Shown here in pieces: positions 16,772-46,595 of a stretch of DNA of 64,000 nucleotides. The stretch spans positions 2,494 to 66,493 of the forward strand of contig CAKOLH010000004.1 of the NCBI GenBank assembly GCA_934096105.1, written 5' to 3'. The notes beneath the pieces were generated by a model. The model saw only the letters and a list, made by a program, of their open reading frames with translations. It was not told the origin of the DNA and searched no databases. The position numbers were made by a program, and so were the translations under genes. The stretch is from an uncultured Bacilli bacterium (GTDB lineage: Bacteria; Bacillota_I; Bacilli_A; RF39; UBA660). Position 1 is the stretch's first letter. Every line of letters begins with the position of its first letter.

Positions 16772-17113
16772 ATGGCATATAGAAAATTAGGTAGAGATAA
16801 TAAACATAGAAGAAGTATGTTAGCTACTTTAACTAAACAACTAATTGAAAATGAAAGAATAGTTACTACTGAAACTAGAGCTAAAGAAGTTAGAAAGAGT
16901 TTTGATAAAATGGTAACTTATGGTAAAAAAGGTACTTTAGTATCAAGAAGACTTGCCCTTGCATTTTTACATAATGATAAGAAAACCGTTGATAAAGTAT
17001 TTAATGATTTAGCAGTTAGATACAAAGATAGAAATGGTGGTTATACTAGAATTATTAAGATGACTGAAAGAAAAGGAGATTCTGCTCTAGAAGTTATTTT
17101 AGAACTAGTTTAA
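16772..17113 (+). CDS. rplQ: 50S ribosomal protein L17
   Basis: [17 protein letters not shown]...GGYTRI. Confidence 0.96.
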
Positions 17114-17119
17114 TATATA

Positions 17120-17157
17120 GAGATATCTATTAATTTAGATATCTCTTTTCTTTTTTC
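17120..17157 (+). terminator. Intrinsic terminator of the alpha operon
   Basis: Perfect 11-bp stem AGAGATATCTA/TAGATATCTCT, 6-nt loop, then a T-rich tail. Confidence 0.85.
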
Positions 17158-17526
17158 TCTTAAGCCTAGGCTTAAGAGATATAACATAGCCTAGGGTCTA
17201 TGTTATGAAAGTTTATTTATTTTTTAAATACTTATTGATTTATTTTTTAAATACTTATTGCAAAATATCATTACTTATGATATTATTTTATACGTAAGGT
17301 AGATAGATATAATTTATGTGTAAAATCTATAAATTATATAAGGAAAGGAGGCTCCTCTTATGATTAAAATGGTAAATAGAAACGTTAACTATTTGTTAAT
17401 TAGGGAGAGGACTGTAAGTCTACAAATACTTATAAATAAAAGGATTATAGATAAAGACTAAGATAACTAATATAAATATTAGTCTTTCTTTATAGTCTTT
17501 TTTGTATTATAGAAAAGAGGTATATT
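17157..17526 (+). promoter_or_regulatory. Conserved leader, copy 1: two hairpins, a promoter, a roughly 235-nt 5' UTR and a terminator-like hairpin before the RBS
   Basis: Collinear with 44040-44369. Promoter is TTGCAA (17258-63), 17 nt, TATTAT (17281-86). Conserved core is AGGAGGC.C.TCT.ATGA.TAAA...AACGTTAACTATTTGTTAATTAGGG...TGTAAGTCTA. It ends with AAAGACTA...TAGTCTTTCTTTATAGTCTTTTTT. Confidence 0.6.
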
Positions 17527-18081
17527 ATGAATAAAAAATTATTATATAGTTTATTAATAGTATTATTAATAGTAGTAGTATCAGTAAGTATTACTTATGC
17601 TTGGTTATCATGGTCTGGAGTAGTTAATATATCTGGTACTAGTGAATGTTTTGATGTTAATTATGTTAAAGGACAAGATATAGGTAGTGATAGTAATCCT
17701 GCTAATTTTAGTTTAGCAAGTACTTATACTGAAGGTTTATCTTCAGTAATTAAAGTTAATTTAAAAGATACTTGTACTATTAGTAATGGTACTGGGACAT
17801 TATATTTAAATACTGATAGTACTACAAGTAATATATTACTTACTAGTAATGTATTAAAGTATCAAGTATTAGAAGGTACTAATGAAGTAGCAAGTGGTAT
17901 AGTAAGTAGTACAGGTAATTTACCTATATATAATAATATAGAAATAAATAATGAAGTAAAACAGTTAACAGTATATATATGGATAGATGGTAGTTTAGTA
18001 AATAATGATAATTCTAATGATATATTATCTAGTGTATATAAAGGAAATATAAGTATGAGTATAGAAAGTGGTGATAAATAA
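17527..18081 (+). CDS. Secreted or anchored protein: stand-alone copy of the N-terminal module shared with the DGR target and the LRR protein
   Basis: TM/signal segment ending ITYAWLSW, which resembles SipW/camelysin-class signal peptides. It shares the TVYIWIDG motif with 18081 (TLYIWIDG) and 44370 (TLYIYIDG). Its stop overlaps the next ATG (TAATG). Confidence 0.7.
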   Translation: MNKKLLYSLLIVLLIVVVSVSITYAWLSWSGVVNISGTSECFDVNYVKGQDIGSDSNPANFSLASTYTEGLSSVIKVNLKDTCTISNGTGTLYLNTDSTTSNILLTSNVLKYQVLEGTNEVASGIVSSTGNLPIYNNIEINNEVKQLTVYIWIDGSLVNNDNSNDILSSVYKGNISMSIESGDK

Positions 18082-19703
18082 TGAAAGATAATAAAAATAA
18101 TAAAGCAAAGATATATATGATATTTAGTTTAATAGTATTAGTAATAGTAGTAATAGTAAGTGGTACATATGCTTATTATGTATGGACTACAAGTGACAGT
18201 GATACTACAAAGATAGTTGCAGGAATAGGAGCTGCTACAGTTACCTTTAATGGAGGAAGTGATATAAGTGCTAATCTAAGACCAGTATCAGATAAAAGTA
18301 AAGGTATAGTAAAGAATATTAGTGTAAAGGCAGATACTACAGGATTAGTATTTAATATGTATTTAGATATAACTAGTATAGATACAGGATTAAAAGATGA
18401 GAGTTTTAGATATGAATTATATAAAGGAACTACTAAAGTAAAAGAAGGTAACTTTAGTGATAGTTATCTAACTAGTAATACAGTTACTTGTAGTAAGAAT
18501 AATACTAATCATATAGTATTATTAACTAATGAAAGTATATCTACATCAAAGACATCATATACATTATACATATGGATAGATGGAGCAAATTATACTAATC
18601 CAAATACTATGATGAATAAAATATTTAGTTTTAAATTACATGCTGATGGAGAAGGGGCAGTGTTAGCAAAGACAGCCGCAGAAACTATAACTAATTTATA
18701 TACAAATGCATCAAAAACATCAGCAACAAATAATGGTATAACTTATAATTATGCTAATATTTATGATACTGATAGTGATAACAATACAAGCGGTGGATTA
18801 ATGAATGATAGACTAGGTGGTACTACAACTAGTTTAGATGGTGGTAATATAAGATATTATGGAGCAAGTCCAAATAATTATATATATTTTAATTGTTCTG
18901 ACTATAGTAATCAAACATCTAGTACATGTGAAACATGGCGTATAATAGGAGTATTTGATGGCAAATTAAAACTAATAAGAGGTAGTCAAATAGGAACATA
19001 TTCTTGGGACAATAAGAATACTAGTACAGGAGCAGAAGATAATTATGGTGAAAATGACTGGACAACAGCAAGATTAATGAAACTGCTTAATCCTAGCGAT
19101 TATTATACAGTAGATTCTAACGATAATGGATTAGGCCAAAGTTTATATTACAATAGTACATCAGGAAAATGTTATAGCGGTCAAAATAATGCTACAGTAG
19201 ACTGCGATTTTACAAGTACAGGAATAAAAAATGATATTACAAGAAATATGATTGCAGATACAACATATAATCTAGGGGGATGGAATACCGCTGCAGTATA
19301 TCCAAATCAAATATATGGATACGAAAGAGGAACAACAGTATATACAGATAGACCAACAACATGGACTGGTAAAATAGCCTTAGCATATATAAGTGATTAT
19401 GGCTATGCAGCAGATTTTAATCAGTGTGTTAATAAACCATTAGATGAATATAGCGATAGTACTTGTAACTCAAACAACTGGATGAAAGCAATTTTAGGCA
19501 CTTCTAGTTGGGGATGGTTATTAACCCCTGATTCCAGCGACTCGAGTACTGCGCGGGCTGTGTCTTCGGGCGGCCATGTGCCCCACGGCTATGCGTATAA
19601 TGTGACTGGGGCCGCGCCAGTCCTTTCTCTAAGTTCTGAACTAGGAATAGAGTCAGGATCAGGGGACGGCTCAAGTAGTAATCCATACAAATTAAATGCG
19701 TAA
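18081..19703 (+). CDS. DGR target protein: signal/anchor, shared N-terminal module and a C-terminal variable ligand-binding domain carrying the VR
   Basis: N-terminus ...VSGTYAYYVWTTSD. The first 190 aa or so are homologous to 44370. The C-terminal WGWLLTPDSSDSSTARAVSSGGHVPHGYAYNVTGAAPVL is encoded by the VR. Confidence 0.85.
   Translation: MKDNKNNKAKIYMIFSLIVLVIVVIVSGTYAYYVWTTSDSDTTKIVAGIGAATVTFNGGSDISANLRPVSDKSKGIVKNISVKADTTGLVFNMYLDITSIDTGLKDESFRYELYKGTTKVKEGNFSDSYLTSNTVTCSKNNTNHIVLLTNESISTSKTSYTLYIWIDGANYTNPNTMMNKIFSFKLHADGEGAVLAKTAAETITNLYTNASKTSATNNGITYNYANIYDTDSDNNTSGGLMNDRLGGTTTSLDGGNIRYYGASPNNYIYFNCSDYSNQTSSTCETWRIIGVFDGKLKLIRGSQIGTYSWDNKNTSTGAEDNYGENDWTTARLMKLLNPSDYYTVDSNDNGLGQSLYYNSTSGKCYSGQNNATVDCDFTSTGIKNDITRNMIADTTYNLGGWNTAAVYPNQIYGYERGTTVYTDRPTTWTGKIALAYISDYGYAADFNQCVNKPLDEYSDSTCNSNNWMKAILGTSSWGWLLTPDSSDSSTARAVSSGGHVPHGYAYNVTGAAPVLSLSSELGIESGSGDGSSSNPYKLNA
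19526..19631 (+). repeat. DGR variable repeat (VR)
   Basis: About 106 bp, aligning without gaps to 19895-20000 (offset 369). The differences are concentrated at TR adenines. It ends in the GC-rich GGGGCCGCGCCAG, an IMH-like element. Confidence 0.9.
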
Positions 19704-19747
19704 GCAGTTAATTTGAGATAACTTTGGTAGGAAGAACTTGGTAAGAG

Positions 19748-19828
19748 GCCCCTTAAACAGGCGAAGTCTGTTAGGGGCAATGGCGGCGAAAGTCGCCAAG
19801 AGAAGATAGATATTCGCCGAAAGGCGAA
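19748..19828 (+). other. Three GC-rich hairpins between VR and TR, two with GAAA tetraloops
   Basis: 19748-19778 is GCCCCTTAAACAG...CTGTTAGGGGC (imperfect). 19782-19797 is GGCGGC-GAAA-GTCGCC. 19813-19828 is TTCGCC-GAAA-GGCGAA. None is followed by a T-run. Confidence 0.7.
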
Positions 19829-19894
19829 AAAATAAAAATGGTATTAACACTGGTTCGGTGTTTAATATAGGGTGATTTTATATAAAACTAGTAT

Positions 19895-20000
19895 CCCTAA
19901 TTCCAGCAACTCGAATAATGCGTGGAATGTGAATTCGGACGGCAATGTGGGCAACAACAATGCGTATAATGTGAATGGGGCCGCGCCAGCCCTTTATATA
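19895..20000 (+). repeat. DGR template repeat (TR)
   Basis: Non-coding copy of the VR. In the VR frame it reads PNSSNSNNAWNVNSDGNVGNNNAYNVNGAAPALYI, with 12 AAY (Asn) codons. Confidence 0.9.
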
Positions 20001-20252
20001 GTGGGTTTTCTACTAGGCTAAGGCTTAGTATGACAGTGCTTTAAAGGACAAAAATCATCCTTGAGATATTTATCTCTAAATGTTAAGCTATAGATGGATT
20101 ATATCTACGGGTATACCTAGAACTATAGATATTTATGTAAAAGTGCTAGTAGAGGCTTTTATAGAAAATTAATTCAAATATTTTGAATATATTTTCTTAT
20201 GTCTCTATTAGCGCTTATTTTTAATCTGTAAAGGCTGTGATATTATAATGAT
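20001..20252 (+). ncRNA. Putative DGR spacer RNA region downstream of TR
   Basis: Non-coding and rich in hairpins (AAGGA...TCCTT, GAGATA..TATCTC, ATTCAAA...TTTGAAT). A long-range pairing GCTAGTAGAG/CTCTATTAGC is possible. The role is inferred by analogy to the Bordetella phage DGR. Confidence 0.35.
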
Positions 20253-20549
20253 ATGAGTATGATAAATAGATATAAGTTTACTAAGAATATCTATAAAGAC
20301 TATATAGTACTAATAATTAAAAATAAAAAATATTATTCTTTTGATAAAGATAAGAAAATATTAAATTATATTAATTTTAATAATAAACTATATTTATTAA
20401 AAAAGTATAGTATTAATTTTATAGTACTAGATAATTTAGAAATACTTAGTATAAATAATTATGATGTAAATAATTATTATAAATATTTATATATATCTTA
20501 TGTAAAAGATATATTATTAGTAATAAGGGGAAGTATAAGAAGTGAATAG
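20253..20549 (+). CDS. Small DGR accessory ORF, weakly MutS-domain-I-like
   Basis: 98 aa. The DYIVLIIKNKKYYSFDKDKKILNYI segment parallels SIVLRKSGGFYICFDDDAIVLSYL of the next ORF. It overlaps the next ORF by 8 nt. Confidence 0.5.
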   Translation: MSMINRYKFTKNIYKDYIVLIIKNKKYYSFDKDKKILNYINFNNKLYLLKKYSINFIVLDNLEILSINNYDVNNYYKYLYISYVKDILLVIRGSIRSE

Positions 20550-20904
20550 TATAGTTTTAAGAAAATCAGGTGGTTTTTATATATGCTTTGATGATGATGC
20601 TATTGTATTATCATATTTATGTAATTATAAAATAAACAATGGAAAAGTGGGTTTTCCATTAAATACTATTAATAAAGTTATTAATATACTAGAGAATAAT
20701 AGTATTAGTTATATTGTTAAAGAAAATATGGAAGATATAAATAAGAAGATGTATGGCAATAAGAATAAATATAAATGTTATTTGGATAAAGGTAAAAAGA
20801 AAATAGATTTAGATTATAGAATAAATAAAATTATAAATAAAATTAATTGTATGAATGAAGAAGATGTTAATAAACTACTAGATTTAATTGAGGAAAATAT
20901 ATGA
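20542..20904 (+). CDS. MutS N-terminal (domain I)-like small protein, DGR accessory
   Basis: SIVLRKSGGFYICFDDDAIVLSYLCNYKI..GKVGFPLNTINKVINILENNSISYIV parallels the MutS stretch ILLFYRMGDFYELFYDDA...LDI.L....AGIPYHAVENYLAKLV..G..VAI. Confidence 0.6.
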   Translation: MNSIVLRKSGGFYICFDDDAIVLSYLCNYKINNGKVGFPLNTINKVINILENNSISYIVKENMEDINKKMYGNKNKYKCYLDKGKKKIDLDYRINKIINKINCMNEEDVNKLLDLIEENI

Positions 20905-21239
20905 ATGATTTTAAAATAGTAAAAAATATTAAGTTATTTATATATAGTTTAGATAATATAGTTATTAATATTCCAAATAAAGATAAAGTAATAAAAGAAA
21001 GATTATATAATACTAGTTATGATATATTATATTTAGTATATAGATGTAATTATAAAAGTGAAAATAAAAATGAATATTATAAAGATATATTATCTAACAT
21101 TAGCATGTTAGATTTTTATTTAGAAAGATGTCTAAAGAATAAATATATTAATAATAAAGTATGTGAGAAGTTAAGTAATAATTTACTTTCTATTACAAAA
21201 ATGATATATGGTTGGATTAAAAGTGAAAGTAAATGTTAA
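20901..21239 (+). CDS. avd: Avd-like DGR accessory variability determinant (helical bundle)
   Basis: 112 aa, predicted helical, with a basic C-terminal part. It sits immediately upstream of the RT and overlaps it, as in canonical DGRs. Confidence 0.65.
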   Translation: MNDFKIVKNIKLFIYSLDNIVINIPNKDKVIKERLYNTSYDILYLVYRCNYKSENKNEYYKDILSNISMLDFYLERCLKNKYINNKVCEKLSNNLLSITKMIYGWIKSESKC

Positions 21240-22278
21240 TGATATTATAGATATTTATGAAAAAGAAGTAAGTGTTAATACTAAGAATAAAAGTAAAGTA
21301 TATAATTTTGAAAAGAATAAAATAGAAAATATTTATGATATTAAAAATATTATAGAGAGTGATAATTATAAAATAACTAAGTATAATGTATTTACTATTA
21401 ATAACCCTAAATATAGAATAGTTATGAGTTTAAATATGAAAGATAAGATTATTAATCATTATGTAGCAAGATTTATATTATTACCTAAACTAAACAAATA
21501 CTTAGATATAAGAAACTGTGCTACTAGAAAGAATATGGGTTATGATTATGCCATTAAATTACTAAAAAGATATATTGAATGTAATAAAAAATATGGTAAG
21601 TTTTATATACTTAAAATAGATATTAGTAAATATTTTTATAGTATAGACCATAATATATTAAAAGAATTATTAAAAGATAAATTAAATGAAGAAGAATATA
21701 AAATAGTGAGTAGTATAATAGATAGTACTAATGAAAGTTATATTAATAATATTATTATTAATATTAAAAATAATCTATTAATTAAAGATAAAAATAGATG
21801 TAATGAAATAAATAAATTACCATTATATGAATATAATAAAGGATTACCTATAGGTAATATGACTAGTCAGATATTATCTATATTTTATTTATATAAGTTA
21901 GATTATTATATTATAAATAATTTGAAATTAAAATATATGGTAAGATATATGGATGATTATATTATTATATCTAATAATAAAGATAAATTAAAGAAAGCAT
22001 TAAAAGAAATAGAATATATTTTAAATAAAAAATATAAATTAAATATTAATAAAAATAAAACTAATATATATGATAGTTATCATGGTTTTGAATATTTAGG
22101 TTATATGTTTTATATTAGAAATAATAAAACTATTATTAAGATAAAAAGTAGTAATAAAAGAAGAAGAAATAATAATATTAAAAAGATAAATTATTTATAT
22201 AAGAATAATTATATTTCTTATCAAAAATATTTTAATAGTATGAATAATTATAATAATAGTTATAAATATACTAAGTAA
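21208..22278 (+). CDS. DGR-type reverse transcriptase
   Basis: RT motifs FYILKIDISKYFYSIDH, LPIGNMTSQ (the DGR-characteristic I/LGxxxSQ) and RYMDDYIII (YxDD). About 356 aa with no maturase or endonuclease domains. Confidence 0.9.
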   Translation: MVGLKVKVNVNDIIDIYEKEVSVNTKNKSKVYNFEKNKIENIYDIKNIIESDNYKITKYNVFTINNPKYRIVMSLNMKDKIINHYVARFILLPKLNKYLDIRNCATRKNMGYDYAIKLLKRYIECNKKYGKFYILKIDISKYFYSIDHNILKELLKDKLNEEEYKIVSSIIDSTNESYINNIIINIKNNLLIKDKNRCNEINKLPLYEYNKGLPIGNMTSQILSIFYLYKLDYYIINNLKLKYMVRYMDDYIIISNNKDKLKKALKEIEYILNKKYKLNINKNKTNIYDSYHGFEYLGYMFYIRNNKTIIKIKSSNKRRRNNNIKKINYLYKNNYISYQKYFNSMNNYNNSYKYTK

Positions 22279-22286
22279 TATCTAAG

Positions 22287-22396
22287 TATATAGATATGGC
22301 TTATATATAATAGGTATGTAGATACATTATTCTTAGACTAAGAATTAGGCTAAGAATAATACTAATAAGACTTAGAATAAGGCTTATAGTGAATAT
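22287..22396 (+). repeat. Dispersed structured intergenic repeat, copy A
   Basis: TATATAGATATGGCTTATATATAATAGGTATGTAGATAC-ATTATTCTTAG-actaagaattagg-CTAAGAATAAT-ACTAATAAGACTTagaatAAGGCTTATAGTGAATAT. Confidence 0.75.
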
Positions 22397-22485
22397 ATAT
22401 TATAAAGAAACAAACACTTATACAGGTGTTTTTTCTTTACTATTTAAAACTTTTGTGGTAGTATATTAAATACTTGGAGGATTCT

Positions 22486-23268
22486 ATGTACGAAAAACTA
22501 TTAAATATTATTTATACTTATACTTTTAATTATAAATTACCTGATATAGATTTTGTAAATGAAGTAATAAATATTGCTATTGATAATGATGACTTAAGTT
22601 CTTTTGTTAATGGTGTTAGTTATAATTATGAATATACAGCATCATATGGTTTTATTTCAAAAACATTAAGATTTAATATAAATAATATTATTAGGTGTAT
22701 AAAAAATTCATTAAATTTTTATAGTGATGCTTATGATTTAAAAGAAATAAGATTATTTGAAAAATATGTATATGTCTGTTATGAATTTGTTTATACTATT
22801 TTACATGAATTGGAACATATTAAACAAATTAAATTACTAGATACTAGTGAAGAAAATACTTTTGAAACTAATTTAATTCAAAATAATATTGATATGTTAT
22901 CAATTAATCCTGATTTATATAAGAAAGAACATGATTTATTTCCTATAGAAAGAATGGCTATTATAAATAGTAATTCAAAGATAATTGAAATGTTAAAGTT
23001 AGATGCTGATGTATTCTTTATTTTGAATAATATTTATGTTAATAGATATAATTCTTTTGTTACACAGTATTATTCTGATGGTAGATTTCCATTACTTGAA
23101 TATATTAATGCTACTGATTCTAATCTTTATTATGAAGAACTCTTAATTGATAAAAATAATACTAAAAAAATATTAAAAAGAGTTAAAAAAGATATTTCTT
23201 TTGAAGATAGAGTTTTGATGGGATTACCAATTACACAGAAGGAACTTAATGAGATAAAAAACAAATAA
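22486..23268 (+). CDS. HExxH-motif protein (putative zinc metallopeptidase-like), paralog 1
   Basis: The ATG at 22486 (MYEKLLNIIY) matches the paralog N-terminus MYEEILNIIY. Motif ILHELEHIKQ. Shared C-terminus SFEDRVLMGLP. Confidence 0.6.
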   Translation: MYEKLLNIIYTYTFNYKLPDIDFVNEVINIAIDNDDLSSFVNGVSYNYEYTASYGFISKTLRFNINNIIRCIKNSLNFYSDAYDLKEIRLFEKYVYVCYEFVYTILHELEHIKQIKLLDTSEENTFETNLIQNNIDMLSINPDLYKKEHDLFPIERMAIINSNSKIIEMLKLDADVFFILNNIYVNRYNSFVTQYYSDGRFPLLEYINATDSNLYYEELLIDKNNTKKILKRVKKDISFEDRVLMGLPITQKELNEIKNK

Positions 23269-23285
23269 TATTTGGGGGTGATATT

Positions 23286-24065
23286 ATGTATGAAGAGATA
23301 TTAAATATTATTTATAATTATGCTTTTAATTATAAATTGCCTGATGTTAAGTTTATTGATAGTGTTTTAGATATAATAGTGGATAAAGAATTAGGAGAAT
23401 ATATTACAAGAGTTGAACATAATTATCAAAGTTTTGCTTTAGCTTCTTATCTATATGAAAATAAAATATTAAGATTTAATCTTGATATGATTTTAATTCA
23501 GTATTCTAATTTTTATCAAGTACACAAAAGAATGTATGGTATGGATGATTTTAATAAATATTTATATATATGTTTAAGCGTGTTAGAAATTATTTTTCAC
23601 GAACTGGAACATGTTATTCAAAGTAAAAAAACTAATACTTTATTAGTAGATGATTTTGAGAGACAGTTAATTGAAATAAGTACTATTGCAGTAGAAGTAT
23701 ATCCTGATTTATATGATAAACGTCATGATTTGTTTTTTATTGAAAGAGAGGCTAATATCAAAAGCTGCAAAAAAATAAAAGAAGTATTAGCATTATGTGA
23801 ATCATCTTCAAGAGGTATTAAGAATAATTTTAATAAAAGATATAATCAATTAGTAAATAAATATTATTCATATGATAATTATCCATTATTAACGTTTTTA
23901 AATATTACTCATGGTAAACTTTCATATTATGATTTTCCTATTGAAAAATATAATACCGAAAGAATATTAGCTAGTACTAAAGAAAATCTTTCTTTTGAAG
24001 ATAGAGTTTTGATGGGACTACCTTTGGATAAAAAAGAATATCACAGATTAAGAAGATTAAAGTAA
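23286..24065 (+). CDS. HExxH-motif protein, paralog 2
   Basis: Collinear with 22486-23268. Motif IFHELEHVIQ. Confidence 0.6.
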   Translation: MYEEILNIIYNYAFNYKLPDVKFIDSVLDIIVDKELGEYITRVEHNYQSFALASYLYENKILRFNLDMILIQYSNFYQVHKRMYGMDDFNKYLYICLSVLEIIFHELEHVIQSKKTNTLLVDDFERQLIEISTIAVEVYPDLYDKRHDLFFIEREANIKSCKKIKEVLALCESSSRGIKNNFNKRYNQLVNKYYSYDNYPLLTFLNITHGKLSYYDFPIEKYNTERILASTKENLSFEDRVLMGLPLDKKEYHRLRRLK

Positions 24066-44369: not shown

Positions 44370-46595
44370 ATGAATAAATATAAGTTATATATGATATTAG
44401 GAATAGTAGTATTAGTGTTATCAGTAAGTAGTAGTTTTGCTTATTATGTATGGAAGAATACATCTAATGCACTAGTTAGTTTAAATGTATGTACTCCCAC
44501 AATAACATTTGCTGGAGGTTCAACAATTAATGGAGTAGACATAGTGCCAGTATTAACTAAAGAAGAAGGGACTATAAAAGATATTGAAGTAAAAAAGAAT
44601 AGTAATTGTAATAGAGATGTAACTATGAATCTATATTTAGAGTTAACTACATTTCCTACAGAACTAGCAGAATCTTCATTTGTCTATGAATTATATAAAA
44701 ATAGTGAAACTATGGCTATAGCAAGTGGTAACTTTGCTAATAAAACAGAGGGAGATACAATAACACTTTTATCTAATCAAATATTAAATACAAGTAAAGA
44801 TACTTATACATTATATATTTATATAGATGGTAATGTAGATAATCCAAGTACTATGGCAGGAAAGAACTTCTTATTTAAATTATGGGGTTCAGGAGAAGGA
44901 GCAATATATAAAGAAAATGTGATAACTACTCCAGATAATCCAAGTACTAGTACATCAAAGTTCTTTAATACTGAAGTAATGAGAGAAGAGATACAATCAC
45001 TTACTATTGCTGAAGATAACACAGTACCAGATACACCAGGAGTAATATCAAAAGATATATCTTCAAATCAAGATGGAACAGTAATGTTATGGTATACACC
45101 AAAAGAAGTAACATCAAGCGATGGAAGTACAAAAACAATGTATGATATGTGGATAGGTGGAGAAAATGGTGTATTACAAACAGGAACAAATGCTTCAGGT
45201 ATGTTTGCATATTTAACTAACATAGAAAAACTAGATTTATCAAAACTAGATACTTCATACATAACCAATATGTCTAGGATGTTTTATAATAGTTCAGGTT
45301 TAAAATCTATAGATTTATCTAACTTTAATACGAGTAATGTTACTAGTATGAGTCATATGTTCGATGGATGTTCTAATTTACTTAATTTAGATGTATCTAA
45401 TTTTGACACTAGCAAGGTAACTGGAATGATAGCAATGTTCTATAATTGCAGTTCATTAACTAACATAGATGTTTCTAATTTTGATACCAGTAATGTTAAG
45501 AGTATGGAAGCTATGTTTGGATTGTGTTCCAATTTAAATACTCTAGACTTAAGTAATTTTGATACTTCTAATGTAACTAATATGGGGAATCAGGTTGGAA
45601 AAGGAGGTATGTTTCAGGGATGCACTAATTTAAAGAGTTTAAATATAAGTAGTTTTAACACTTCAAATGTAACAAATATGACGTGGTTATTTGCAAGTTG
45701 CAAGTCACTTACTGAAATTGATGTATCAAACTTTGATACAAGCAAGGTAACATCAATGCGAGGAATGTTTAGTGGTGCCTCTTCATTGCAAACATTAAAT
45801 ATAGCAAACTTTAATTTATCTAATGTTGATAGTATGAGCGAAATGTTTAGAAATTGCACTAATTTAATTGATTTAATTTTACCTAATTCTTCGGCACCAA
45901 AATTAACCACTATGTATCGTACATTTCAATATTGTACTAATTTAAAAGGAACAATAGATTTATCCAATTTTAAACCAAATAATTATGTTGACTTTGGTTT
46001 TGCTTTTAATGGGTGTAAAAACGTAACTGAAGTAAAATTAAATGACTTTAAGTTTTCATCATTTAACGCAGTTTTTTATGGCTGCACTTTACTTGAAAAG
46101 ATAGACTTTACAGGAATTAGTACATCAAATATAACAAATATGCAAACTGCTTTTGCCGATTGTAGTTCTTTAACAAGTTTAGATTTAACAAATTTTGATG
46201 TTTCAATGGTAGCCACAAGTAAATATGGTAATGCTGGTCTTCTTCAAACATTTGGTGGATGTTCTAATCTTGAAACGCTTAATATTACAGGTTGGAAAAT
46301 AACAAACAAGGTAACAAAGTTGTATGGTACTTTTGATAAATGTAGTAAATTAAAAAAAATAGATTTATCAAATTGGGATACAAGTGGAGTAACTGATTTA
46401 AGTTATGCTTTTAGAAATATGACAAATATTGAAGAAATAGATTTAAGAAGAGCAGATTTTAGTAATGTAACATTTACTACTTCAGTATTCTATCTAACAA
46501 ATAATAATGTTAAAATAATAGTAAAAGATGATATACAAAAAAATTGGTTTAATACTAATTTTAGTAATTTAACAAATATAGTAGTTGCAGACTAA
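44370..46595 (+). CDS. Surface protein: shared N-terminal module plus BspA-type / DUF285 leucine-rich repeats
   Basis: N-terminus SSSFAYYVWKNTS and a roughly 190-aa module homologous to 18081. It continues with many tandem repeats of about 25 aa (DLSNFDTSNVT.M..MF..CS.L). Confidence 0.85.
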   Translation: MNKYKLYMILGIVVLVLSVSSSFAYYVWKNTSNALVSLNVCTPTITFAGGSTINGVDIVPVLTKEEGTIKDIEVKKNSNCNRDVTMNLYLELTTFPTELAESSFVYELYKNSETMAIASGNFANKTEGDTITLLSNQILNTSKDTYTLYIYIDGNVDNPSTMAGKNFLFKLWGSGEGAIYKENVITTPDNPSTSTSKFFNTEVMREEIQSLTIAEDNTVPDTPGVISKDISSNQDGTVMLWYTPKEVTSSDGSTKTMYDMWIGGENGVLQTGTNASGMFAYLTNIEKLDLSKLDTSYITNMSRMFYNSSGLKSIDLSNFNTSNVTSMSHMFDGCSNLLNLDVSNFDTSKVTGMIAMFYNCSSLTNIDVSNFDTSNVKSMEAMFGLCSNLNTLDLSNFDTSNVTNMGNQVGKGGMFQGCTNLKSLNISSFNTSNVTNMTWLFASCKSLTEIDVSNFDTSKVTSMRGMFSGASSLQTLNIANFNLSNVDSMSEMFRNCTNLIDLILPNSSAPKLTTMYRTFQYCTNLKGTIDLSNFKPNNYVDFGFAFNGCKNVTEVKLNDFKFSSFNAVFYGCTLLEKIDFTGISTSNITNMQTAFADCSSLTSLDLTNFDVSMVATSKYGNAGLLQTFGGCSNLETLNITGWKITNKVTKLYGTFDKCSKLKKIDLSNWDTSGVTDLSYAFRNMTNIEEIDLRRADFSNVTFTTSVFYLTNNNVKIIVKDDIQKNWFNTNFSNLTNIVVAD

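Follow-up and report, generated by a model that had tools for sequence, protein, structure and literature searches.

Evidence for a chromosomal, MutS-like-containing diversity-generating retroelement beside a surface protein gene of an uncultured, AT-rich gut bacterium

A stretch of 64,000 nucleotides (nt) from an uncultured Bacilli bacterium (contig CAKOLH010000004.1; hereafter the window) contains two imperfect repeats, one at the 3' end of a gene for a surface protein and one in the adjoining intergenic DNA. With a probability of roughly 0.9, these are the variable repeat (VR) and the template repeat (TR) of a complete diversity-generating retroelement (DGR) on the chromosome of an uncultured gut bacterium with very AT-rich DNA. 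The observations that carry this reading are the repeat with its adenine bias, the gene content of the cassette, covariation in the TR-flanking RNA, and hypervariable VR codons in the population. The element is a DGR of known architecture, containing a MutS-like (MSL) accessory protein and diversifying the DUF6273-like tip of a surface protein, and it leaves the DGR concept unchanged. It offers a clean, fully annotatable case of targeted hypermutation from a gut lineage that is uncultured, genome-reduced and poorly known.

All features of the cassette lie on the forward (+) strand. The VR (19526..19631) covers amino acids (aa) 483-517 of the 540-aa target protein and has a mutagenised zone of about 19530-19606. 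The TR (19895..20000) is non-coding and intergenic. The original prediction had paired these two intervals by hand, and an independent run of a repeat finder recovered the same pair (19526-19631 and 19895-20000), with a length of 106 nt, a spacing of 369 and an identity of 80%. In the ungapped alignment, the arms are identical at 85 of 106 positions, leaving 21 mismatches. The TR is composed of 31 A, 27 G, 24 C and 24 T. Tabulated by TR base, the mismatches are concentrated on the adenines and are not evenly spread, affecting 17 of the 31 adenines compared with 4 of the 75 other bases (Fisher's exact p = 4.2e-8). The approximate counts obtained by hand thus proved exact, and the same four non-A sites were found (TR>VR: T19923>C, G19950>C, G19951>C and C19990>T). 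The bases that replace TR adenines in the VR are G, C and T. The pair can be extended by 2 nt on its 5' side (VR 19524-5 AC, TR 19893-4 AT), which adds one non-A difference. A scan in which adenines were treated as wildcards found no second VR in the window.

The codon positions of the differences follow the reading frame of the target. All 21 mismatches fall on codon position 1 or 2 (codons from 19527), as do 27 of the 28 adenines in TR 19895-19990. Read in the VR frame, the TR holds 12 AAY codons; this number and the peptide strings previously given for the two arms agree exactly with the translations. The island of high GC content that had been pointed out is likewise real, with about 57% GC in the VR and about 48% in the TR, compared with 26.7% in the window and 10-20% in the downstream accessory and reverse transcriptase (RT) genes.

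A non-coding repeat that adjoins the gene it resembles, in an extremely AT-rich genome, could in principle be a dead duplicate of the target's 3' end that became A-rich by AT pressure (27% GC genome) without any reverse transcription. The substitution pattern effectively refutes this idea, to which next to no credence is given. AT pressure is strand-symmetric, yet 17 differences involve a TR A and only 1 involves a TR T, and two TR adenines face a T in the VR, which lies beyond AT pressure. Furthermore, the TR still has about 48% GC beside neighbouring coding DNA of 10-20%, and its adenines sit at positions 1-2 of a frame that the TR itself does not use. In every relative, the repeat occurs together with an RT, the accessory protein Avd and covarying RNA on the flanks of the TR.

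Both arms contain the GC-rich 13-mer GGGGCCGCGCCAG near their ends (VR 19608-19620, TR 19977-19989), followed by a single C/T difference, as originally described. The VR 3' end (19608-19631), in which the 13-mer precedes the discriminating T19621, resembles an initiation of mutagenic homing (IMH) site, and the corresponding TR end (19977-20000), with C19990 opposite the VR T, resembles an IMH* site. The C/T difference had been grouped with the other non-A mismatches as a possible record of drift or of an older homing event. For C19990/T19621 this view has to be given up, because the same switch, CCAG-C-CC in the TR and CCAG-T-CC in the VR, recurs in all six relatives with a readable pair (loci L001, L002, L005, L008, L024 and L034). 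It is a fixed discriminator of TR donor and VR recipient rather than drift, and it looks like an IMH*/IMH mark. For the other non-A mismatches, drift or older homing is plausible and unproven.

The adenine substitutions had been treated as one class, and this holds for all but two of them. A19996 and A19998 lie 3' of the probable start of complementary DNA (cDNA) synthesis and are therefore set apart from mutagenesis; they look like fixed IMH/IMH* differences rather than products of it. In a population set consisting of the 100 closest target homologues (81-87% identity), one of the codons facing these adenines is monomorphic (L 100%) and the other is dimorphic (S 69 / Y 31). A scan flagged as terminator-like a VR-only hairpin of 6 base pairs (bp), GACTGG...CCAGTC, at 19604-19622. 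This hairpin depends on the A>C change at 19606 and on the IMH-specific T19621, is not conserved in relatives and is probably fortuitous.

The cassette is situated downstream of rpsM-rpsK-rpoA-rplQ. Its order is orf184 (17527-18081), the target gene (18081..19703; an open reading frame (ORF) of 540 aa), a 190-nt structured spacer, the TR, a 250-nt structured spacer, orf98 (20253..20549; 98 aa, basic, isoelectric point (pI) 9.6), the MSL gene (20542..20904; 120 aa, MutS-like), avd (20901..21239; 112 aa, pI 9.2) and the RT gene (21208..22278; 356 aa). The four cassette ORFs orf98, MSL, avd and RT are all intact. The RT protein matches Pfam RVT_1 (E = 1.2e-20) and carries IGNMTSQ at aa 215 and YMDD at aa 247; the former fits the [I/L/V]GxxxSQ pattern typical of DGR RTs. 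Avd gives full-length matches to Pfam bAvd (E = 1.6e-8) and NCBIfam DivGenRetAVD (E = 1.5e-11), and this accessory protein is present in about 74% of DGRs. A search of the window for a second RT or Avd found none. Among the phage records that match the RT, none reaches 60% identity (27-34% in the 12 listed); represented among the matching records are the DGR-carrying phage nd12 as well as crAss-like and Faecalibacterium phages.

Group II intron, Drt3a and retron models give scores for the RT as well, as they might if it were an unrelated neighbour (a group II intron or defence RT) and the VR differences had arisen by recombination or gene conversion among paralogous targets. Recombination does appear to take place here, as 26 single-nucleotide polymorphisms (SNPs) are clustered in the N-terminal half of the target between the window and locus L022, and the cassette occurs in several genomic contexts. 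However, the RT scores against all of these other models are far below the family cut-offs, and the window contains no other copy that could have served as VR donor. In addition, inter-strain differences fall on TR adenines in 9 of 9 cases, and Avd, a DGR-specific partner, is adjacent. Gene conversion beside an unrelated RT is accordingly a very improbable source of the pattern.

Evidence of a different kind comes from the RNA surrounding the TR. The minimum free energy (MFE) fold of 19700-20240 has a z of -5.3 compared with shuffles. A bracketing duplex of 11 bp encloses the TR, with its 5' strand at 19869..19879 (AGGGUGAUUUU) pairing with its 3' strand at 20051-20061 (AAAAUCAUCCU), which directly follows the invariant motif UAAAGGACA (20042-20050). 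Compensatory changes in this duplex are found in L001/L002, L005, L007 and L008, a conserved G.U pair included; in L001/L002 the two strands read AGGGUAAUUUC:GAAAUUAUCCU. Between the target stop codon and the TR, the MFE fold contains four hairpins, located at 19748-19778, 19782-19797 (GAAA loop), 19813-19828 (GAAA loop) and 19842-19867. The first of them (19748-19778) has 2 pairs with compensatory changes in L001/L002. The four upstream hairpins may belong to the DGR RNA as its 5' part, or to a structure on the target side. When the bracketing duplex and the first upstream hairpin were tested as one structure, 94.4% of cells were paired compared with 37-56% in slid controls, 5 pairs were changed on both sides, and 0 of 500 shuffles reached the observed covariation score.

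Several elements of this RNA resemble those in the DGR carried by Bordetella phage BPP-1. In the structure determined by cryogenic electron microscopy (cryo-EM), a template:primer duplex lies beside the upstream:downstream duplex of the cPRT Stop, which is followed by a stem-loop and A-minor adenosines; an Avd-binding stem-loop lies just after the TR, and the same RNA layout is predicted for 207 of 278 Avd-type DGRs (bioRxiv 10.1101/2023.10.23.563531). In the window, the strand CCUUUA at the TR 3' end (19991..19996) is predicted to pair with the invariant UAAAGG (20042-20047). In the consensus fold these pairs are invariant in most of 7 loci, and L007 differs yet is complementary (UCCUUAUC:GAUAAGGA). 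By analogy, CCUUUA:UAAAGG is a candidate template:primer helix that would set the cDNA start. The consensus fold also places a tetraloop stem-loop, UACUAGGC-UAAG-GCUUAGUA, just 3' of the TR (20011..20030), a candidate for the stem-loop to which Avd would bind. A short stem-loop, GAGAU-AUUU-AUCUC, followed by U-AAA (20063..20080), resembles the stem-loop and adenosines that complete the cPRT Stop.

Further 3', a conserved branched hairpin CUAUAG...CUAUAG (20088..20128) is supported by compensatory pairs in the consensus fold. It is followed by a long hairpin (20141-20216) and a U-rich tract, which together span 20141..20226 between the TR RNA and the accessory genes. In L001, L002 and L008 the long hairpin is kept, its arms having changed in a complementary way; in L007 a simpler hairpin with a U-run is found. 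This element has the look of a terminator or attenuator and could define the 3' terminus of the TR RNA. The RNA after the TR is the best-conserved part of the cassette: between the window and the sister locus L034, 261 of 263 positions are identical, compared with 85 of 100 in the TR itself. An Rfam scan of 17000-23000 at E<=1 gave only a chance match to CsrC (E = 0.98), and no curated family fits the TR-flanking RNA. A genome-wide scan with the 15-mer AAGGCTTAGTATGAC revealed, besides the known loci, no fetched locus with an adjacent UUAAAGGA among the matches listed, and the remaining matches look like chance. The structure of the TR-flanking RNA is thus supported by covariation, and the functions suggested for it follow the analogy with BPP-1.

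The related loci, which were gathered through RT, Avd and target searches, allow the variation of the repeats to be followed across strains. Relatives of the RT come from gut metagenome-assembled genomes labelled uncultured Tenericutes or Bacilli, with a GC content of about 25%. L001, L002, L005, L008, L024 and L034 have their own TR/VR pairs with adenine-specific differences. Among the 100 orthologous targets, column entropy peaks at aa 484-509, which are VR codons, with 8-14 residue types per site. The comparison with orthologous loci therefore locates the variability where the original prediction of a VR/TR pair with an IMH/IMH* end would have it, and that reading is further supported by the RT, by Avd and by the pairs of the six relatives. 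The population set contains 51 VR haplotypes, and pairs of proteins with only 2-8 differences in 495 non-VR positions differ at 8-19 of 33 VR codons. The sister strains L032 and L034 show 9 VR nucleotide differences, all 9 of them facing TR adenines. The contigs of L024 and L030 are identical and so uninformative on VR variation. Some VR haplotypes recur unaltered in proteins with as many as 47 differences outside the VR, and for this reason VR rewriting in the target family appears to be episodic.

A decayed sister DGR is present in L032 (3100-3700) and L033. Its TR has a 45-nt internal deletion between AACAATG(C/T)G repeats, and orf98-MSL-avd-RT has been deleted except for about the final 40 nt of the RT gene; both the target and its VR are kept. 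Taken together, the locus and its relatives are a compact set for comparison, with covarying RNA, fixed discriminators, haplotypes both frozen and diversified, and one copy in decay. They speak for the general validity of RNA-controlled priming and termination, which has been worked out only for the Bordetella phage element.

Several points weigh against the reading as a complete DGR, or against the activity of this particular copy. A GC-rich inverted repeat directly after the IMH (19631) was looked for and no conserved hairpin was found there, the nearest GC-rich hairpins starting at 19748, past the stop codon; such a repeat is found in only 34% of DGRs and is not obligatory (PMC5758913). The window target has no sequence or profile match in Pfam, NCBIfam or PDB, and an AlphaFold2 (AF2) model of the full target, based on 100 close homologues, is unusable, with a predicted local distance difference test (pLDDT) score of 35.6. 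The Avd and MutS_I scores are under the curated cut-offs. L022 and L023 represent the same locus and context and have a VR and TR identical to those of the window, so that the three assemblies show no VR variation. The transfer zone holds three non-A mismatches (T19923>C and GG19950-1>CC), plus one at its 5' edge. Of these, T19923>C turns a Trp (window aa 492) that is kept in 87 of 100 orthologues into Arg.

The lack of VR variation among the three assemblies and the non-A mismatches would also be expected if the DGR were a quiescent or decaying relic, in which the VR stems from an older TR, both have drifted since, and homing no longer takes place. T19894 of the TR, at the 5' edge, corresponds to a C in both the VR and the sister TRs, pointing to drift of the TR. 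The TR codon GGC at 19950 aligns with AAC in the sister TRs L029, L034 and L001, and VR CCC could therefore be the A>C, A>C product of an older TR that changed later. Since fresh homing would erase non-A mismatches, the VR has probably not been rewritten since they arose. The derived T19894 and the Trp-to-Arg change at a conserved Trp are both in keeping with a relic, as are the persistent VR haplotypes of the family and the demonstrable decay of the sister L032/L033. On the other side, all four cassette ORFs are intact, as are the RNA elements, and the RNA after the TR shares 99% identity with that of a sister locus. Moreover, past the target's N-terminal half, 0-1 SNPs in 5.9 kb separate the three assemblies (the window, L022 and L023); because they are so close, their identical VR is weak evidence of inactivity. 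Non-A differences are in any case present in 23% of curated DGRs, with more than one in 24 of 372 (PMC5758913). A relic is judged unlikely, albeit worth serious consideration. Judging from the sequence, this copy of the DGR is probably competent and looks intact, but has probably not been rewritten very recently.

At alignment column 504 (window aa 492), the scaffold Trp that the TR encodes as TGG has given way to Arg twice separately, once in the window pair and once in a clade of 10 proteins, and to Leu once, a recurrence of non-adenine changes at a single VR codon. The window and L022 are separated by 26 SNPs, all of them within the 1.1-kb tract 17796-18878, which covers the target's N-terminal half and the last part of orf184; the 5.9 kb that follow have none. 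Such clustering points to recombination in this tract or to a second variable zone of non-DGR type.

The target protein begins with an N-terminal hydrophobic anchor and a beta-rich module (~210 aa), followed by a C-terminal domain of about 287 aa that ends in the VR. The full-length target has more than 7,800 close homologues, and the family of its C-terminal domain comprises 2640 representative clusters (50% identity) at E<1e-3. The target thus belongs to a very large family of surface-protein domains, and its own C-terminal domain is not directly recognised by Pfam. Seven of 29 diverse members of this family match DUF6273, at the C-terminal end of the model and with the VR included. Among ten members scanned individually, the best DUF6273 score was 23.8 bits, compared with a curated cut-off of 23.5 bits. 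As a target domain of DGRs, DUF6273 has been described before; it has been modelled with a C-type-lectin-like fold that carries the VR at the C-terminus (PMC10743442, PMC11792537). Given the predicted domain organisation, the target is most probably a surface protein that is anchored in the membrane and whose ligand-binding tip is variable.

The N-terminal module is also carried by orf184. In addition, a 741-aa surface protein encoded at 44370-46595 is 39% identical to the module over its first ~210 aa, and beyond it consists of DUF285/leucine-rich repeats (Pfam E = 6e-67). The module common to the target, orf184 and the 741-aa protein appears to be a membrane anchor or stalk for different surface heads.

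Two small accessory genes separate the TR RNA from avd. The 120-aa product of the second gene has a weak Pfam match to MutS_I (E = 0.0046), and 19 of 32 members of its family match MutS_I. A search of the PDB with the MSL profile gave no meaningful match, and the link to MutS needed a fold search. The AF2 model, based on 38 homologues, has a pLDDT of 95.6. The 50 best PDB matches listed by Foldseek are all MutS/MSH chains, the best with E = 1.7e-4 and 6 with E<=0.001, and the root-mean-square deviation is mostly 1-2.5 A over about 58-79 columns. The 120-aa protein is a member of the MSL accessory class, its modelled MutS domain I fold being confirmed by AF2 and Foldseek.

The other gene, orf98, has 60 homologous clusters and no match in Pfam or NCBIfam. 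It is found at three cassette positions: in the order TR-orf98-MSL-avd-RT (window, L002), after the RT (L005) and before the TR (L007). As it travels with the cassette at three different positions, orf98 is considered a real accessory gene. A comparison of the orf98 and MSL families with hhalign gave a probability of 89.7% (E = 1.8e-6, 66 columns), and BLASTP gave E = 0.022. The alignment has two gaps in orf98, one of them across the invariant GFP segment of MSL. On these sequence comparisons, orf98 is a probable divergent MSL paralogue. It lies outside the four accessory classes (Avd, HRDC, MSL and CH1) of Wu et al. 2018 (PMC5758913), supplement apart. The one modest novelty of the element is orf98, a conserved second accessory gene that is probably MutS-domain-I-like. 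In the more distant cassette L005 (5622-7372), a 124-aa ORF combines an N-terminus of MSL with the final ~17 aa of Avd (...KMVYGWIRKSGL); the body of Avd is seemingly missing, and the orf98 homologue follows the RT.

In Bacteroides, host MutS lowers retrohoming 5-10-fold (bioRxiv 10.1101/2024.11.15.621889). For this reason, protection of the mismatched heteroduplex by MSL and orf98 is a reasonable, if speculative, idea. A more specific version, tentative and rather doubtful, is that orf98 and MSL act together, for instance as a heterodimer mimicking the asymmetric mismatch-binding pair of MutS, and thereby shield or channel the cDNA:VR heteroduplex from host mismatch repair. If this were true, orf98 would be a fifth, previously unlisted DGR accessory class in low-GC gut Bacilli. 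A conserved, probable second MutS-I-like gene in any event provides a testable lead on how DGRs cope with mismatch repair.

The findings can be assembled into a working scheme, in which we infer the priming, termination and integration steps as well as the roles of MSL and orf98. The non-coding TR (19895-20000) would be transcribed within a structured RNA, where the long-range duplex 19869-79:20051-61 would bracket it and the TR 3' end CCUUUA (19991-6) would pair with the invariant UAAAGG (20042-7). By analogy with the Bordetella phage element, this arrangement would position RT-Avd to self-prime cDNA near 19990 and to halt its synthesis immediately 5' of the TR. The RT would copy G, C and U faithfully and insert random bases opposite adenines. 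The resulting cDNA would replace the homologous VR (19526-19631) at the 3' end of the gene for the 540-aa membrane-anchored surface protein, with the GC-rich 13-mer and T19621 (C19990 in the TR) marking the VR as recipient and the TR as donor. In this way, about 14 AAY, AGC and GAC codons could be recoded in the DUF6273-like (C-type-lectin-like) ligand-binding tip. MSL, and probably orf98, might serve as accessory factors that handle the densely mismatched cDNA:VR heteroduplex, which is speculative.

Compared with the prototype, the BPP-1 DGR (mtd-avd-TR-brt), the window element shares a C-terminal VR, a non-coding TR, adenine-specific differences at codon positions 1-2, a GC-rich 3' IMH/IMH* pair, and the presence of Avd and RT. 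Common to both are also the pairing of upstream and downstream RNA (the cPRT Stop analogue) and a helix between the TR 3' end and downstream RNA. The two systems differ in location, as BPP-1 is phage-borne whereas the window element is chromosomal, and in the nature of the target, which is a tail fibre in BPP-1 and a membrane-anchored cellular surface protein in the window. Owing to the gene order target-TR-orf98-MSL-avd-RT, the 5' strand of the duplex is intergenic in the window, whereas in BPP-1 it lies inside avd. The window cassette additionally has two extra small accessory genes and lacks an inverted repeat directly after its IMH. Its RT is distant from phage DGR RTs (<=34% identity in the 12 phage records listed, BPP-1 not being among those compared).

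Architecture D of Wu et al. 2018 is defined by the MSL accessory class and includes the Legionella DGR (PMC5758913), and the Bacteroides Bfr, Bth and Bun DGRs carry Msl (bioRxiv 10.1101/2024.11.15.621889). With MSL-containing DGRs, the window element has in common a small (112-283 aa) MutS-domain-I-like protein that occurs with avd and without HRDC. It differs from them in the additional, basic orf98 of about 98 aa and in its host, an uncultured low-GC member of the Bacilli/'Tenericutes'. A further comparison is with DUF6273 targets, such as the tentaclins of phages nd4/nd12 and those of Faecalibacterium prophages. These likewise have the VR at the C-terminal end of a DUF6273-like domain, with a similar VR peptide pattern, ...AW.V...G.V...(A/V)xPVL.L. 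In contrast to them, the window protein is too diverged to match DUF6273, and its domain of about 287 aa is cysteine-containing and fused to a cellular N-terminal anchor module.

The cassette is not confined to one site. An Avd protein identical to that of the window is encoded in at least 4 genomic contexts (L022-L031). The cassette DNA of L024-L026 and L028-L030 is 94-98% identical to that of the window, yet is associated with different TRs and targets. One context is rplQ...glmS, another is peptidase M50 with a 608-aa target, and further ones are radical-SAM/MFS and CNNM/TrmA. The multiple contexts reflect either several copies per genome or frequent relocation. A search of the window for the flanking genes of an alternative genomic context found none. 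Many of the contigs that bear the cassette do not reach 2 kb, perhaps because assemblies broke at repeats. A promoter scan was uninformative in this AT-rich DNA, with 40 sites found and 51 expected.

Directly 3' of the RT gene, two tandem paralogous ORFs are located at 22474-23268 (264 aa) and 23286-24065 (259 aa), with a nucleotide identity of about 65%. Neither has a significant match in Pfam or NCBIfam, DUF3920 reaching only E = 0.046, below the cut-off. Each contains an HExxH motif (ILHELEHI and IFHELEHV, respectively). These ORFs accompany the cassette only in the genomic context of the window (L022, L023, L027) and not in the other contexts.

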